Assembly: GCA_965197475.1 (NCBI GenBank)
Contig: CBDANF010000003.1
Location: 832,001-896,000, forward strand
Reading direction: 5' to 3'
DNA: 64,000 nucleotides
Origin: Candidatus Poribacteria bacterium
GTDB lineage: Bacteria; Poribacteria; WGA-4E; WGA-3G
Below the pieces are notes generated by a model that saw only the letters and a list, made by a program, of their open reading frames with translations, was not told the origin of the DNA and did no database searches. Position numbers and translations under genes: made by a program. Shown in pieces: positions 11,837 to 18,099 of this stretch; position 1 is the first letter of the stretch, and the number at the start of each line of letters is the position of its first letter.

Positions 11837-12157
11837 GTGACCCACCTCAATTCTACCGTATTTGATGCTTGCATTGTGTATTGCTTGGAATTTATATAGT
11901 TTCCGGATCCTCTACTTGATCAAGTGTTTCAGAAAGTGGGCCAACACGCATTTTGAGTTTCTTCGCTAATCCTTTATCACCCCGGATTAAGTTAATAACT
12001 ATGCTTTCATAATCTGTTTTGTTTTGACATTTGAGAGATTTAGCGATTGTTTCAAGAGCACAACTATCATCCACTGGATAACGAGCTACCAGCTTGTCAA
12101 GGTTCCCATCTTCAATAAGTTTATTGAAACGATTAAGTTCATCAGTGAAAGGTGAAT

Positions 12158-12905
12158 TATAGTAAAACCTGTAATTACTTATACACTTTTATAATATCAT
12201 CAATAGAGGTCTCAGCGTTGTATTGACGTATTCGCTTGATGTTAGCGAAATCTTTCTCAATCGGATTCAACTCCGGTGAATACGGCGGTAAAAACAACAA
12301 ACTCGCACCGCATTCCCGGATCAATGCTTCTGTTTGTGAACCTTTGTGGAAAGAGGCATTATCCATAATCACAACGTGGCTGTCGTCAAGCAAAGGACAT
12401 AACATCTCCGAAAGCCATGCGTTGAAGGCAACCGCATCGCAACTACCTTCGAAAAGCACAGGCACTGTGAAACATCCATCAAGACGTGCCGCAATCAAGG
12501 TTGTGGTGGTATACCGATGACTTGGCACTTTATCTTCAACACGGACACCTTTCGGGCATAAGCATACCGACGGAAATCGGTTTCGGTGAAACCACTTTCG
12601 TCAAGATAAACCGGTTTTTTGCCATGCTCGTGTGTCTCTTGTTGAAGTGCCGAGAGATACTCTTGGCGTTTTACCGGACACTGTTCTTTGTAGGTCGTGG
12701 TCTTTTTTTTCGCGTGATATTGAGTTTTGCCAAGGCATAAAAGATGCCGTTTGTTGAAACACCGAAGTGTTTGGCACGTTCGGCGAGTGTGCTATCGGGA
12801 AAATCGGCAACATGTTGTTGAAGCGCATCATAATCAATGTGTCGGGGCCCTTTGGGACCCGGCTTCTCATAGGCAAAGGGGTCTTCTGCTTCTAATACCA
12901 TATCT
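12158..12905 (-). mobile_element. IS630-family element, 5'-truncated
   Basis: HTH part (TLAERAKHFGVS..ITRKK), A-run frameshift site near 12703-12710, DDE part VIMDNASFH...LPPYSPELNPIE; end tatagtaaaacctgtaatta. Confidence 0.85.
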
Positions 12906-12970
12906 AATTGACAATATAACATAAAGCGTATATATTCTATTGCAACCTTTTGAAATAAAGTGAGGAAGCA

Positions 12971-13189
12971 ATGAATAAAAAAGTTCCCAAAATTACCGAG
13001 AGTGTTGAAGAAATCAAATCCCTTATGAAGTGCTCTGCCCAAAGCTATCAAAAGCAAAGGCTCTTCATGTTGTATCATTTACAAAGTGGTCAAGCAAAAA
13101 ATCGTAAGCAAGTTGCCGATTTGTTAGGTGTGCATCGCACGACGATTGGAAACTGGTTGTCGTCATACGAAACAGGTGGTCTTGAAATA
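12971..13189 (+). pseudogene. N-terminal HTH fragment of a second IS630-family transposase, cut by the DUF1670 element
   Basis: QVADLLGVHRTTIGNWLSSYETGGLE ends exactly at the 13190 TIR. Confidence 0.8.
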
Positions 13190-13202
13190 GTATCAAATGA
13201 CC

Positions 13203-13417
13203 ATAGGATAGCTGGAAGGCTGATGTTCATTGGCTTCCCAGCGATCGTTGATGAGTGGGTTGCGTTGGGATCGCGAGCATCCTCTTTGAGAAATGATGCG
13301 TTTAGCGATAAACGTGTCTAAAGTATAGCAAAACCGGTAGCGGTTGTCAACCATATTTTCAAGGCACCTGCCCCGGTTTTGCGAAGTAAAGTTCGTCGGG
13401 AACATAGGATTAGGGTC
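13203..13417 (+). ncRNA. Candidate structured non-coding RNA (or ssDNA structure) inside the DUF1670 element
   Basis: Five consecutive hairpins, G-U pairs that work only on the + strand, GCGA tetraloop at 13305-13308; expression not shown. Confidence 0.4.
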
Positions 13418-14302
13418 TCATTGGGCTTCTCCTTGGTGAGTGGCTTCATCGTTTGAGTCTGAATTGGCAAGGTTTGCATCTATGGCTTGGAGTTGGGGCT
13501 GCGGAATCAGGTCCAGATATTGAGTGATAACGCGTTTAGAAAGTCGGGTGATCTGTGAGATTTTATCAATATCTGTGGTAGCGGTGCGAACGACTTTGAC
13601 GCTCTCATAATCGCGAATGTATCTATCAACTGCCTCCTTAGAGTGTTTGGTCTTTGCGGCAATCCTGGGGGTGAGATGTCCTTGAAGATAGAGGGTTATG
13701 ATCTCTTTCTTATGGGTAATAGCCCCCGATAAGTCATGGATATTGCCACGGGTGGGCAAGAGTTCTCCAGTGGTTTTTTGCCATTCATTAACATAATCAC
13801 AGACAACGGCATCGCAGACATTGAGCAAAACTGCCAAGTCGAGTTGTGTCAATAATGCCCCTTGGTCATAAGCTTGATGACACCAGCGGACCAAGCGATT
13901 GATCCGCAATTGCCGGGAGGTGAAACCGTTTCTAAAAGATTCAATATCCTCTGCGGCGAGGTAGGTCAGGATGATGGGTTTCATCCGAGTTTTGACGATG
14001 GACTTTCCTCTTTCTGGATGTTCATCAATAGGGACGGCCATCCAAACGAGTTGTCCATAACTTAGGAAACGCTCATCTGGGAGTTGATCACCGGTGGCGA
14101 GTTTTTCCAAGGGGAGGGTAATTACGAAATAGTCTTCAACGGTCTTGAGAATATCATCAACAATGGCGGTGGCAGTGACTTCGCCTTTGTCATACCCGTA
14201 GTCATTGAGAAAGCGATGGATAAGCAACTGTCGTAGGGATTTATCGTTGATGCGTCTGAATTTCTTCTCGTTGATTTGCGTGCGTGTTAGAGGTTTGCTC
14301 AT
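13418..14302 (-). CDS. DUF1670-like HTH protein B
   Basis: QAYDQGALLTQLDLAVLL, PTRGNIHDL..ITHKKEII, HSKEAVDRYIRDY; ATGA overlap with protein A. Confidence 0.8.
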   Translation of the reverse strand: MSKPLTRTQINEKKFRRINDKSLRQLLIHRFLNDYGYDKGEVTATAIVDDILKTVEDYFVITLPLEKLATGDQLPDERFLSYGQLVWMAVPIDEHPERGKSIVKTRMKPIILTYLAAEDIESFRNGFTSRQLRINRLVRWCHQAYDQGALLTQLDLAVLLNVCDAVVCDYVNEWQKTTGELLPTRGNIHDLSGAITHKKEIITLYLQGHLTPRIAAKTKHSKEAVDRYIRDYESVKVVRTATTDIDKISQITRLSKRVITQYLDLIPQPQLQAIDANLANSDSNDEATHQGEAQ

Positions 14303-15099
14303 GAGAGATCCTCCTTTTTTGTGTCCTCTGGTTCTGGGTGAAGGAGTTGGGTCATGCGATCGGTGTGTTGATATTCCTTGAACAGCGAGAGATACTCGCG
14401 TATCAACCGGTCAGAGAGATGAGAAATCAGGCGTATCTGAGCGTTAGGGAACCCTTGATGATGGAGCGTGGCAACTTGTGTGAAGTCCCTCAAGTAGCGG
14501 TAGACAGCCCGTTCGGAGTGGTTCGTCTTTTGCTCAATCTCGGTGAAGGTGTATGCTTTGAAGTACAGCTCGAGAATCTGCGTCTTATGAGACAGTCCCG
14601 GGCCCATGTCGTGTTTCGCCCCGCGCGTCATCACGAAATAGCCGGACTGCTTCAACGCTCGGATGTCGCGTTTGACGGTGGCAGGACTGGTGGTTAATAA
14701 CACCGCCAAATCCTCATAACTCAGCAAGGCTTCTTGGTCATAAGCTTCTTGGGTCAATCGGAGGATCCGATGCCGTCTGAGTCCTGCGAGCCCATAAGTC
14801 GCTAAAACTTCAAGGTCGGCTTCAACATCGTTGAGTTTGAGTCGACAGGAGACTTTTTTCGCTAAAGCGATGTGTTTGCCTGCGGGTTCCTCAGCGGCGA
14901 CTGCCTCGTAGCAGATTTGCCCTGATGTGAGTTGCACATCGGCATGTTGTTCAAAGTAGGTAGAAATCTGTTTATAGTAGGCTTCAGCAACGAGAGGCAT
15001 GAGATTAAAGTCTGCTGAAATCTTCTGAATAATCGCGGCTCTGGCATTCTTGGATTCGAGCCGAGTGATACCGTAAGCGGTATCCTTCTTGCGGTTCAT
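14299..15099 (-). CDS. DUF1670-like HTH protein A
   Basis: EAYDQEALLSYEDLAVLL, MTRGAKHDMGPGLSHK, HSERAVYRYLRDF; GGAGG RBS at 15105-15109 favours the ATG at 15099. Confidence 0.8.
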   Translation of the reverse strand: MNRKKDTAYGITRLESKNARAAIIQKISADFNLMPLVAEAYYKQISTYFEQHADVQLTSGQICYEAVAAEEPAGKHIALAKKVSCRLKLNDVEADLEVLATYGLAGLRRHRILRLTQEAYDQEALLSYEDLAVLLTTSPATVKRDIRALKQSGYFVMTRGAKHDMGPGLSHKTQILELYFKAYTFTEIEQKTNHSERAVYRYLRDFTQVATLHHQGFPNAQIRLISHLSDRLIREYLSLFKEYQHTDRMTQLLHPEPEDTKKEDLS

Positions 15100-15166
15100 A
15101 TTGACCTCCATGAATAGATTATCGGGGATCCGAGGACATCTACTCGTTAGTTTAACGAATACTAAT

Positions 15167-15195
15167 AGTATAACTCATGGGGTCATTTGATACAA
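15167..15195 (-). promoter_or_regulatory. Putative sigma70 promoter straddling the element end
   Basis: TTGTAT-N17-TATACT; the TT of the -35 lies outside the TIR. Confidence 0.45.
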
Positions 15196-15347
15196 ACTAT
15201 AAGTAAAGAAATAAGTTGAGTTGGGTTTCGCTGTGCTCTACCCCGCCAAATGCCATAGGCGTATTTGGCGTTGATTCCCTACACTTGATTTCTTATTTCG
15301 AACTCACGTTTACTATAGTTTGGACAATTTCATCCTATCAGGACTTC

Positions 15348-16332
15348 GGACCAGGTGTTAAATATGGTTTGTAAGCACACTTGAGACAGCTGCTGGTGTC
15401 TATCAAAAAATCATGGCAACACTTTATGATGTCTATTTCCCATGCGTAGAAGCACTGCGTCCGGGGCCAAAAAGTCGTTGTCCTGATAGTGAAATTCTCA
15501 CATTTGTTTGGGCTTCTTGAACTGACAGGAAGATAACGAACTCACAGGATACAACCTTATCAAGCACAACTCGGACATCTTTTCCCATATTTACCGGAAC
15601 GCTCTCGCTTCAATCGAAGTATGCGAAACCTGTGCCACGCAAGCGAAAACTCCGGAGGATTTTGACACAGTTCTTACCAGATGATAGGGTTTTCATTGTA
15701 GATAGTTTTCCTATCCCGGTTTGCGATTTCAAGCGTGCTGCGACTTCTACATCGTCTCTAAAATGTGCTGATGGCACCGGCACCTCGGCAACTTATGGAA
15801 AGTGTGCCACAAAAAGGCTTGACACTTTCTTAAGGTTTCGTGGTAGTCTGATAACCACCGTTTACGAACTATCTGTTGATTTGTGGTCGCCACTGCGGAT
15901 ACAGATGATCAAGAAATGCTCAGCTTACTATGTGAACGCGGCACTTGTCCTATTATCCTTGGAGATAAAGGATATTTCCGAGTAACTTGAGACTGATTTA
16001 CTTGAAACAGACAATGTGCGTCTTTTACCGACGCGGTGTCCAAATCAGAAAACACAATACCCAAAGCCGTTTCGGAAGTTGCACGGTAAAACGGTGGCGG
16101 ATTGAGACGACTATCAGTCAACTCACAAATCAGTTTAATGTTTCACAAATACGCGCCCGCGCTCATTGAAGTTTTCAAACACGGTTGAGCAATAAGTTGA
16201 TGGTTGGACATTAGGTGTTTTTTGAATCAATATTTAGGATGCCCGTTAATGGCACTCAAAGATGTCGTTTATACATAAACAATTTCAAAAAAGATAGAAA
16301 CATATTACAAAAAGTTAACTAACACAAGGCGT
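15348..16332 (+). mobile_element. Degenerate IS982-family element
   Basis: Fragments LPERSRFNR, IVDSFPIPVC, RWRIETTISQL broken by stops and frameshifts; right end acaaggcgt; left boundary approximate. Confidence 0.7.
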
Positions 16333-16351
16333 TATTTCTCAGGAGGTATTC

Positions 16352-18099
16352 ATGAATAATCCAAAATCTGGCTCAAAAAACCCTAAAAGCAAAACAAACA
16401 CAAAAGAAAACGGCAATAACATATCTGATACAAACTTTATCCGACAAGCAATTGAAGAAGATATAGCATCAAATAGATTTGATGGGAGGGTGCATACCCG
16501 ATTTCCTCCCGAACCGAGTGGATACCTCCATATCGGTCACGCCAAAGCCATCTGTATTAGTTTCGGCATCGCCGAAGACTATGGCGGACTTTACAACCTC
16601 CGATTCGACGACAGTAATCCGATCACAGAAGAGAGTGAATACGTAGAAGCGATTAAACGGGATGTCCGTTGGCTCGGATTTAATTGGGAGGAACGCGAAT
16701 TCCATGCCTCTGACTATTTCGAAACACTTTATGAATATGCTGTCAAACTGATAGAGAAAGGGAAAGCTTACGTCTGTGATCTGACACCAGAGGAAACGCG
16801 CACTTATCGTGGCACTTTAGTGACAGCCGGCAAAGATAGTCCCTACCGAAACCGTTCTATTGAAGAAAATCTAACGTTGTTCCGTGGGATGTGCGATGGT
16901 AAATTTTCCGACGGTTCTCGTACTCTCCGCGCCAAAATTGATATGGCAAGTCCGAATTTAAATATGCGCGACCCTGTGATGTATCGTGTTCTCCACACCC
17001 CACACTATCGACATGGGACCAATTGGTGCATCTATCCTACCTACGATTTCACACATGGACAATCCGATTCGATCGAAGGCGTTACACATTCCTTATGTGA
17101 CGTTCAGTTTGAAGATCATCGTCCGTTATATGACTGGTTTTTGGAATCGTTGGAAATTTACTCACCTCGACAGATTGAATTTGCTCGACTGAACCTTACC
17201 TACACTATACTATACTTGGTAAGCGGAAACTCAAAATCCTCGTTGAACAAGGACACGTCAAAGGGTGGGACGATCCGAGACTACCCACACTTGCGGGTAT
17301 GCGTCGTCGCGGTTATACTCCAGAATCTATCCGGGATTTCTGCAATCGCATCGGTGTGTCAAAAGCCGACAATCTTATTGAGATAGGACAATTGGAATAC
17401 TCTATCCGAAATGATCTGAACCGTCGCGCGTCTCGTGTGATGGGTGTCCTTAATCCGATTAAGGTTATTATTGATAACTATCCGGAAGGACAAGTTGAAA
17501 TGCTTGATGCCGATAATAATCCGGAAGATGAAAATGCAGGTACAAGAGAAATTCCATTTTCTCGAGAAATCTACATTGAACGTGAAGATTTTATGGAAGA
17601 CCCGCCGCGAAAATTTTATAGATTTGCTCCCGGACGAGAGGTTCGGCTTAAACATGCATACTATATCACCTGCGACCACGTTGTTAAAGATGAAAACACT
17701 GGTGAAATCGTTGATATCCACTGCACTTATGATCCAAAAACTCGTGGTGGTTGGTCTGATGATGAACGGAGGGTACAAGGCACACTGCACTGGGTTTCTG
17801 CTGAACATGCTGTTGATGCTGAGGTGCGCCTATACGGTTCGCTCTTTACAGAGCGCGAACCGGAAAACGTAGCGGATGGCACCGATTGGATACAATTCCT
17901 CAATCCGAATTCTTTAGAGATTCTAAATAATTGCAAGGTTGAACCGAGTCTTGTTGAGGCAATGCCTGAAAGTCGATATCAGTTCCTACGGATGGGATAT
18001 TTTTGCGTTGATCCAGACACAACACCAGAAAAATCGGTATTCAATCGTACAGTACCGCTGCGGGATAGCTGGGCAAAAATTCAGAAAGGACAGAAATGA
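16352..18099 (+). pseudogene. glnS: Glutamine--tRNA ligase, frameshifted by a 5-bp duplication at 17205-17214
   Basis: [45 protein letters not shown]; two overlapping ORFs. Confidence 0.85.

Follow-up and report, generated by a model that had tools for sequence, protein, structure and literature searches.

An outward-facing promoter probably forms the conserved core of the non-coding tail of a DUF1670 insertion element in Candidatus Poribacteria

We show that the 215-nt stretch at positions 13203-13417 of the window (the whole 64,000-nt piece of a Candidatus Poribacteria genome that was analysed) is the non-coding 3' tail of a DUF1670 insertion element. This mobile element of sponge bacteria, about 2022 bp long (13185-15206, minus strand), was delimited by blastn against the genome and by alignment of the ends of its copies, and it carries two genes, A and B, both on the minus strand. 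With moderate confidence, and judging from sequence, we propose that the conserved core of the tail is a strong outward-facing promoter on the gene strand and not a hairpin RNA read from the plus strand, as a preliminary description of this DNA had suggested.

The promoter is of the sigma-70 type and occupies positions 13322-13350 on the minus strand, with a -35 hexamer TTGACA (13350-13345), a 17-nt spacer, the extended -10 dinucleotide TG (13330-13329) and a -10 hexamer TATACT (13327-13322). A consensus scan, in which the sigma-70 consensus is assumed to hold for Poribacteria, scored it as matching 11 of 12 positions in addition to the TG. Over 2.5 kb the scan returned eight sites against a shuffle mean of 3.5, and two of these reached 11 of 12, namely the tail promoter and one site outside the element. 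The same motif, in the same orientation, is conserved among relatives. The tails of 139 loci comprise 83 distinct sequences, 40 of them below 95% mutual identity. Mean column identity of the tail alignment is 62%, and its invariant blocks are the promoter hexamers, AAGTATAGCAAAA and GTCAA on the plus strand. Of the 83 distinct tails, 80 have an exact TATACT, with the TG ahead of it in 79, and by reading the other three have TATAAT, TACACT and TAAACT. With a 17-nt spacer, 37 tails have TTGACA as their -35, 7 have TTGGCA and 6 have TTGATA; by reading, TTGACA is found at 18 nt in a further 24.

More distant relatives, retrieved from metagenomes with a 10-sequence alignment as the query, extend this observation. 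Those whose gene B product is 74-80% identical to ours have tails of 65-92 nt that cannot be aligned to the window tail, and these tails carry an outward TTGACA-16/18-TATAAT, TATCAT or TAATAT directly after gene B. Where B is at least 74% identical, a promoter score of 10 or more is reached by 12 of 13 distinct metagenome tails, with 9.5 for the remaining one; on the opposite strand, only 1 of 52 tails reaches it.

Immediately upstream, in the sense of the genes, lies hairpin 5 (13328-13382), which probably acts on the minus strand as the intrinsic terminator of A-B transcription. The perfect 10-bp arms gcaaaaccgg/ccggttttgc that the preliminary description reported are indeed present (13328-13337 and 13373-13382) and are followed on the minus strand by TATACTTT; by reading, the 10-bp stem is followed by UAUACUUU. 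The 3' arm and the U-rich tail overlap the promoter spacer and the -10, so the -10 would probably serve as the U-rich tail of the terminator. Variants of hairpin 5 retain G-U pairs on the minus strand only in 19 loci, versus 3 on the plus strand. A terminator scan with a loop limit of 8 nt did not call hairpin 5, whose loop is longer. Between the -10 and the end of the element lie 136-141 nt in the 31 long forms and 104-108 nt in the 9 short ones, and all natural deletions leave this promoter-to-end segment intact or merely shortened. We therefore favour, again with moderate confidence, an anatomy in which a gene-strand terminator is overlapped by an outward promoter and followed by a short non-coding leader that leaves the element.

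From this anatomy we infer that the promoter fires and that its RNA has a function. Transcription of A and B would end at hairpin 5 (minus strand, reading from 13417 to 13185). The sigma-70 promoter lying over hairpin 5 would point out of the element and start transcription near 13315, giving a non-coding RNA with about 125-130 nt inside the element that comprises hairpin 4, then an inverted repeat that we call P1, and then the terminal repeat. Such an RNA would leave the element antisense to the outside DNA, usually the 3' end of a gene for a type IX secretion system (T9SS) sorting domain. The role that we prefer is self-regulation of the element, in which the RNA would oppose or process the convergent read-through of the host gene into B and A. 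The same promoter would drive A-B wherever the element end adjoins a 5' end, as in tandem junctions. Regulation of the element is, in our opinion, the likely job of the tail.

The structures within the tail are conserved to different degrees. Hairpins 2 and 3 (13243-13299) are deleted in the short-tail subfamily and are dispensable. In tails of about 155 nt (L053, L058, L063, L064), the plus-strand 3' arm of hairpin 5 is missing; one locus was looked at in G144, the genome of L063. In tails of about 125 nt (L065-L069, L080, L081, L113-L126), this arm is missing together with hairpins 2 and 3, and a gap of 33-34 nt covers hairpins 2 and 3 in L065-L069, L080, L081, L120 and L123. The subfamily with the shorter tails is multi-copy in G136 and has a one-base variant of the terminal repeat. 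Hence hairpins 2, 3 and 5 can all be lost in nature.

P1 (13206-13245), which contains the hairpin described earlier at 13211-13242, is an inverted repeat of 13 pairs with a conserved loop and appears in the RNAalifold consensus of both strands. For the promoter-to-end segment of the 31 long forms, this consensus consists mainly of P1, with z-scores against column shuffles of -6.5 on the minus and -4.5 on the plus strand. Pairing holds in 81% of the cells of the 13 pairs, versus 27-49% with slid partners, and wobble cells number 53 on the minus strand only and 32 on the plus strand only. P1 has no counterpart in the right end of the element or in the clade with 74-79% identity. There, at the right end and at both ends of that clade, the terminal repeat runs straight on as ...ATGACC-CC-ATGAG, while in the clade of the window P1 sits between ATGACC and ATGAG. 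P1 is a conserved inverted repeat and not a proven RNA helix; its distribution marks it as an apparent lineage-specific insert and not as part of a family-wide RNA scaffold, and P1 and the terminal repeat together most likely form a protein-binding end. As a related observation, the terminal ~40 nt of the 74-77% clade (L213, L215, L212, L218, L211) form an almost perfect palindrome through pairing of the terminal repeat with an inverted copy further inside; it is found at the 3' end only, with z of -4 to -6 on both strands.

Hairpin 4 (P4; 13291-13318, minus strand) would fold into a stem-loop where the minus-strand transcript is predicted to begin, and its arm sequences differ between subfamilies. 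Double changes occur in 5 of its 10 pairs, and its covariation of 0.116 compares with 0.082 in shuffles, none of 500 of which reached it. A fold z below -1 is seen in 16 of the 40 lineages on the minus strand and in 22 on the plus strand. The GCGA loop is restricted to a close group.

An open reading frame (ORF) of 70 aa on the minus strand (13193-13405) was considered as a small protein gene and rejected: it is open in close copies only, and frames and longest ORFs vary among 36 tails.

RNA libraries offered a limited view of the locus. Eight of the 20 runs containing the stretch are recorded as RNA, and we aligned four sponge metatranscriptome runs from two studies. Their contigs span the whole element including the tail and, in run X17, bridge the tail to sorting-domain gene flanks. 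Contig depth peaks in the bin 13174-13247 in 2 of the 4 runs, although contig depth cannot rank parts of the stretch.

Several observations weigh against our proposal. In the clade with 57-66% identity, only 1 of 39 tails reaches a promoter score of 10, and on sequence grounds the outward promoter is best regarded as a feature of a clade and not as a requirement of the family. The promoter score itself depends on the assumed use of the sigma-70 consensus in Poribacteria. The contigs of the RNA runs give no strand, ends or level and may include carried-over DNA. Copies that lie in a palindrome and not behind a gene also retain the promoter, a fact that weakens the anti-read-through role. Covariation is absent from P1, where a single double change yields a score reached by 181 of 500 shuffles, and P1 may act as nothing more than a DNA site. 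In over half of the lineages hairpin 4 is weak or absent, and its wobble pairs lean to the plus strand (62 versus 28 minus). Finally, no circle or tandem junction was found by an exact-pattern search in the 159 genomes of the order, and the RNA contigs of the four runs show no joints.

This last point bears on another use of the same promoter, in which it would serve mainly to express A and B once 3' and 5' ends have been joined in an excised circle or a head-to-tail dimer. The transposase would then be boosted only in a transposition intermediate, and the hairpins would be incidental leader structure. Consistent with this idea, the tail promoter is near consensus, while gene A's own promoter looks weak (TTGTAT-17-TATACT or TAGAAT, by reading) and was not called by the scan. 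Moreover, a looser pattern applied to 278 loci revealed two head-to-tail junctions (L218:46-78 and L269:1543-1575), in which the 3' end, 2-3 nt including TT and the 5' end follow each other. Since such junctions exist, the tail promoter can read into a next copy. They may be tandem dimers or, equally, second insertions into a restored AAATAG target. However, the tail promoter is complete within one end and persists after integration, unlike assembled junction promoters, and the exact-pattern and RNA contig searches above were negative. We thus consider expression at joined ends an unlikely main purpose of the promoter. With regard to gene A, its likely own promoter lies at 15160-15193, where by reading the weak -35 TTGTAT falls inside the right terminal repeat, 17 nt from the -10 TATACT; in relatives the -10 is TAGAAT or TATAAT.

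A second alternative is that the tail is purely a DNA-level end, its conserved blocks being sites for DUF1670 proteins or host factors, the promoter a look-alike, P1 a dyad site, and no functional RNA being made. The sequence of P1 including its loop is conserved without compensatory change and adjoins the terminal repeat, and the palindromic terminal ~40 nt of the 74-77% clade likewise involve the terminal repeat. The proteins would also fit. Both genes match only DUF1670 (PF07900; 1004 representatives at E up to 0.001) and helix-turn-helix families, and H197, K198, H220 and Y228 are invariant across 61 sequences. In the AlphaFold model of B (mean pLDDT, predicted local distance difference test, of 86), residues 128-192 look like a winged helix and residues 195-247 like sigma region 4 or a LuxR-type helix-turn-helix. 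A Foldseek search of this model against the PDB at E up to 0.001 gave no match, and a wide structural search returned helix-turn-helix domains only, with a best Z of 6.3 and residues 128-247 effectively compared; a hidden catalytic fold in residues 1-127 of B or in protein A is compatible with this coverage. B would accordingly be composed, over the compared part, of DNA-binding helix-turn-helix domains. Nevertheless, one would not expect a binding site for proteins to match both hexamers, the TG and a 17-18-nt spacing in 80 of 83 tails, nor to recur as TTGACA-N17-TATAAT where the rest of the tail is unrelated. For these reasons, we find it quite improbable that the tail acts at the DNA level alone.

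Before turning to a possible RNA partner of these proteins, it is necessary to consider where the element inserts. We found that it inserts with single-base precision into the last Lys codon of genes with a T9SS type A sorting domain, in convergent orientation, and that Lys-stop is restored; another full copy, besides that of the window, is G000:C3:49937-51958. To the left of the tail, 83 of 98 distinct insertion sites (78 recognised through a pattern and 5 more by eye) encode ...YFY...TRKMLIxK, ending in the element-borne AAATAG. The match of the flank to the T9SS type A sorting domain extends to the last residue, with 36.6 bits for TIGR04183 (cut-off 23) and 23.4 bits for PF18962, below its cut-off of 27. 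The left junction is invariably AAATAG and the right one a variable AA[AG]T[AG][AG], and the empty orthologous sites of two sister genomes read ...aaga|AAGTAG and ...aaga|AAGTAA; insertion is therefore placed within the last Lys codon, with AA on both sides. In the AAATAG junction of the window copy (13185-13190, plus strand), AA is the duplicated or retained target and ATAG the element end, which gives the host gene the third base of its Lys codon and a TAG stop. Of the 43 sorting-domain gene ends of this type that are detectable in this genome, 18 carry the element, and the 25 empty ones all finish in AAR plus a stop; the target can be written CGN-AAR-ATG-NTN-ATN-NNN-AAR-stop. The last 60 nt beside the junction differ strongly among the 18 occupied sites, which have only a degenerate coding motif in common, and recognition by protein fits this motif better than base pairing. 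A motif tgtctgaaccaggattt, which may belong to another short repeat or terminator family, lies downstream of several empty sorting-domain genes (G000:C3:3307392, 3303692, 3280592, 1738994 and 2198375).

Some relatives use a second class of target, the loop of a 12-bp palindrome, GAAACCGAGTTT...AAACTCGGTTTC. This subfamily (L138-L141, L151 and L202, from G035, G026 and a metagenome) is about 80% identical in B and inserts at the site GAAACCGAGTTT-CTTC-AAAACTCGGTTTC. One of its members, L141, is about 90% identical overall to its sorting-domain-targeting sister L125, and the differences between the two concentrate in gene B (element positions about 1150-1300 and 1700-1750).

Two targets used by near-identical elements are what one would expect if an outward RNA, made of hairpins, terminal repeat and flank, bound the DUF1670 proteins and helped to choose targets, since a guide derived from the flank would explain them. 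Like omega RNA, the predicted RNA would also follow the last gene on the gene strand and cross the element end, and the length from promoter to end is constant. On the other hand, the relatives with 57-66% identity have tails of 0 to about 170 nt and ends of the form GGTCAT(T/A)TGATACTAT that abut sorting-domain gene ends; L219 and L274, with tails of 0 nt, and the promoter-less members of this clade still lie at such gene ends. Because this clade, including its tail-less elements, keeps the same target, it is unlikely that an RNA encoded in the tail determines target choice. Likewise, the occupied sites in this genome offer a degenerate coding motif only. The transcribed tails of L125 (identical to L070) and L141 (identical to L028) differ in no block but by 6 scattered substitutions (by eye, alignment A2), and the loops show none of the variation with target that a bridge-type guide would predict. 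Additionally, an Rfam scan of 12800-15400 at E up to 1 gave no match, P1 does not covary, and none of the nuclease or recombinase folds known from RNA-guided systems is seen in the proteins, B having been compared over residues 128-247. A guide or cofactor RNA is thus highly unlikely, and target choice appears, from these sequence comparisons, to be made by the proteins and not by tail RNA.

A more specific version would make the outward RNA a DUF1670 partner that carries the element's own end together with the flank of its current target and steers or licenses the next insertion at look-alike sites, be they sorting-domain gene ends or a REP-like (repetitive extragenic palindrome) sequence. 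If true, such a flank-derived target memory would explain the two unrelated targets of elements that are about 90% identical, with proteins of no known catalytic fold. The above evidence has weakened this reading, and we see only a very faint chance of it, confined to the promoter-bearing clade.

The remaining alternative, that 13203-13417 encodes a structured plus-strand RNA or is a 193-bp insertion with an 8-bp duplication, is largely refuted and retains next to no probability: a lower plus-strand fold energy (-68 versus -54 kcal/mol), the plus-leaning wobble of hairpin 4 and the plus strand that host-gene read-through would transcribe speak for it, but the plus z is only -1.9, RNAalifold found no plus-strand consensus fold in 25 whole tails (-1.26 kcal/mol), no plus-strand promoter was found inside the element, natural variants do without hairpins 2, 3 and 5, the two cataggat copies are not preserved as a pair and the interior is present in all 83 distinct tails.

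The observations on which that view was built are nonetheless real. Both cataggat copies stand at 13202-13209 and 13403-13410, and the hairpin cgttta-GCGA-taaacg is present at 13299-13314. The RNAfold centroid recovers 13211-13242, 13295-13318 and 13328-13382, so the dense structure is there, although the fold is only modestly better than shuffles. On the plus strand, the fold of -68 kcal/mol has a z of -1.91 and is equalled by 7 of 200 dinucleotide shuffles; on the minus strand, the fold of -54 kcal/mol has a z of -2.39 and is equalled by 3 of 200. These z-scores do not display the strand asymmetry that had been claimed in favour of the plus strand, and the G-U argument fares no better, as wobble across relatives picks no strand (P1, hairpin 4 and hairpin 5 disagree). 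The only strand-specific signal is the conserved sigma-70 promoter on the minus strand, and an RNA convergent with the genes finds no promoter support on the plus strand. The hairpins are real, then, but not exceptional, and the strand argument drawn from them fails. The proposed set of five does not hold as a unit either: only P1 is kept family-wide in the tail set, and hairpin 4 is found in 16-22 of 40 lineages. Regarding covariation among homologues, P1 shows none beyond chance, and hairpin 4 exceeds shuffles, yet only in some lineages. As for the small insertion, an 8-bp direct repeat within 215 nt is expected about 0.35 times by chance (23005 position pairs over 65536), and the second cataggat copy reads acagggag, acaggcgg or ataatagg in relatives. 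What survives of the preliminary description is the generic idea of a non-coding RNA from the tail; its strand, its hairpin set, its guide role and the small insertion do not.

Gene A (14299-15111, 270 aa; PF07900 E 1.1e-60, plus HTH_11) and gene B (13418-14302, 294 aa; PF07900 E 1.5e-61) overlap. The left (3') terminal inverted repeat GTATCAAATGACC (13190-13202) is a perfect 13-nt repeat of its partner at 15181-15193. NCBIfam holds no family for B and gave only sub-threshold matches for A, and a tblastn search of a plasmid collection with B found no match. Four proteins of 930-952 aa (P0134, P0135, P0140 and P0145) contain three DUF1670 stretches each, and fused triple forms therefore exist. 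A full-text literature search found no paper naming DUF1670 or PF07900, and of the papers found on Poribacteria and insertion sequences, none deals with this element, as judged by title and opening of the abstract.

By blastn, the genome contains 19 full copies and 1 with an internal deletion, the tail matching 20 places. Allowing up to one mismatch, the terminal repeat has 41 matches in the genome, 40 of which are the ends of these 20 copies; hence, no other element shares these ends, and a separate autonomous partner, sought in the same scan, was dismissed. The element is present in 41 of 159 genomes of the order and, in a sample of the phylum, in 43 of 176 genomes, all from three families of that order. 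Among the 19 copies, pairwise diversity stays at 0-4% in the tail and over most of B and reaches 7-17% in gene A and at the 5' end, which suggests mosaic copies or gene conversion of the 3' half; within the genome, the tail is no better conserved than gene B. The internal-deletion copy (G000:C3:94114-94563), located at a sorting-domain gene end, joins 13180-13340 to 14908-15204 and has kept the -10 and lost the -35.

The window copy is atypical in its surroundings. The usual sorting-domain flank is absent, and the left flank (12893-13187) is a fragment of an IS630-like helix-turn-helix ORF, which continues differently in other copies (C3:97178, C2:1380469). Moreover, 13182-16500 is 100% identical over 3319 nt to C2:1160540-1163858. 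The unusual flanks may reflect a recent duplication or recombination event or, alternatively, a join made at a repeat during assembly. Further to the left, 12157-12895 holds an element of the IS630 family (DDE_3 and HTH_Tnp_IS630 fragments) with about 18 genome copies at 91-100% identity.

Altogether, the tail can be described as a short stretch in which terminator, strong outward promoter and asymmetric element end overlap; an outward promoter at the end of an insertion sequence is a known kind of feature, here in an unusual setting. We believe that this setting is more valuable than the tail itself, as it combines an uncharacterised DUF1670 family with precise insertion into a Lys codon, repair of the reading frame and occupation of 18 of 43 targets. 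The gene-strand promoter tells the experimenter which strand and which 30 bases matter. It also separates two questions, namely the choice of target, which would not be encoded in the tail, and the regulation of the element, which is likely the tail's job.

How does this element compare with known systems? With Tn7 and its TnsD/attTn7 pathway, it shares a site marked by the conserved 3' coding sequence of a host gene whose protein stays intact. Unlike in Tn7, the insertion point falls within the last codon, Lys-stop is restored by the element itself, the targets are dozens of paralogous sorting-domain genes and not one gene, and the element has only 2 kb and two small helix-turn-helix proteins.

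Two RNA-guided systems invite comparison as well. In IS200/IS605, the omega RNA is a gene-strand non-coding RNA at the 3' end of the element, with TnpB or IscB (a RuvC nuclease) as its partner. The RNA predicted here from the promoter would also be a gene-strand, non-coding RNA at the 3' end that reaches the boundary and could carry the flank. However, the DUF1670 partner is not TnpB or IscB, and the element is bounded by terminal inverted repeats, with a 2-bp AA at either junction, in contrast to the subterminal hairpins of IS200/IS605 and their lack of a duplication. Tail-less DUF1670 relatives keep their target specificity, Rfam gives no match, and there is no covarying scaffold (a single double change in P1), the scaffold being absent from relatives with tails of 0-92 nt. 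Similarly, IS110 elements and their bridge RNA resemble ours in being site-specific with a non-coding end. Many IS110 members insert into palindromes of the repetitive extragenic palindrome (REP) type, and one DUF1670 subfamily targets a REP-like palindrome. The DUF1670 RNA would lie at the 3' end and not at the 5' end, though, and there is neither a DEDD/serine recombinase nor a set of programmable loops, the two target classes corresponding to 6 scattered tail changes.

Outward promoters at the ends of insertion sequences are known from pOUT/RNA-OUT of IS10, from OP6110 at the 3' end of IS6110 and from ISAba1- and ISEcp1-type elements. As in these, a complete sigma-70-type promoter lies within about 130 nt of the end, and the predicted RNA would cross the terminal repeat. 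Unlike these, the DUF1670 promoter belongs to an element whose protein family is uncharacterised, stands downstream of the last gene, where it overlaps the terminator of that gene, and faces a convergent host gene, which means that it cannot switch on its neighbour. The tail RNA also differs from RNA-OUT of IS10 in that it would not be antisense to the start of the element's own transposase. Finally, IS911, IS30 and IS21 form junction promoters with the -35 in one end and the -10 in the other, which vanish on integration. With these, the DUF1670 element has in common that transcription from one end may cross joined ends into the transposase gene, and tandem junctions with a 2-nt spacer were seen; in contrast to the assembled promoters of IS911, IS30 and IS21, the DUF1670 promoter is complete and permanent.

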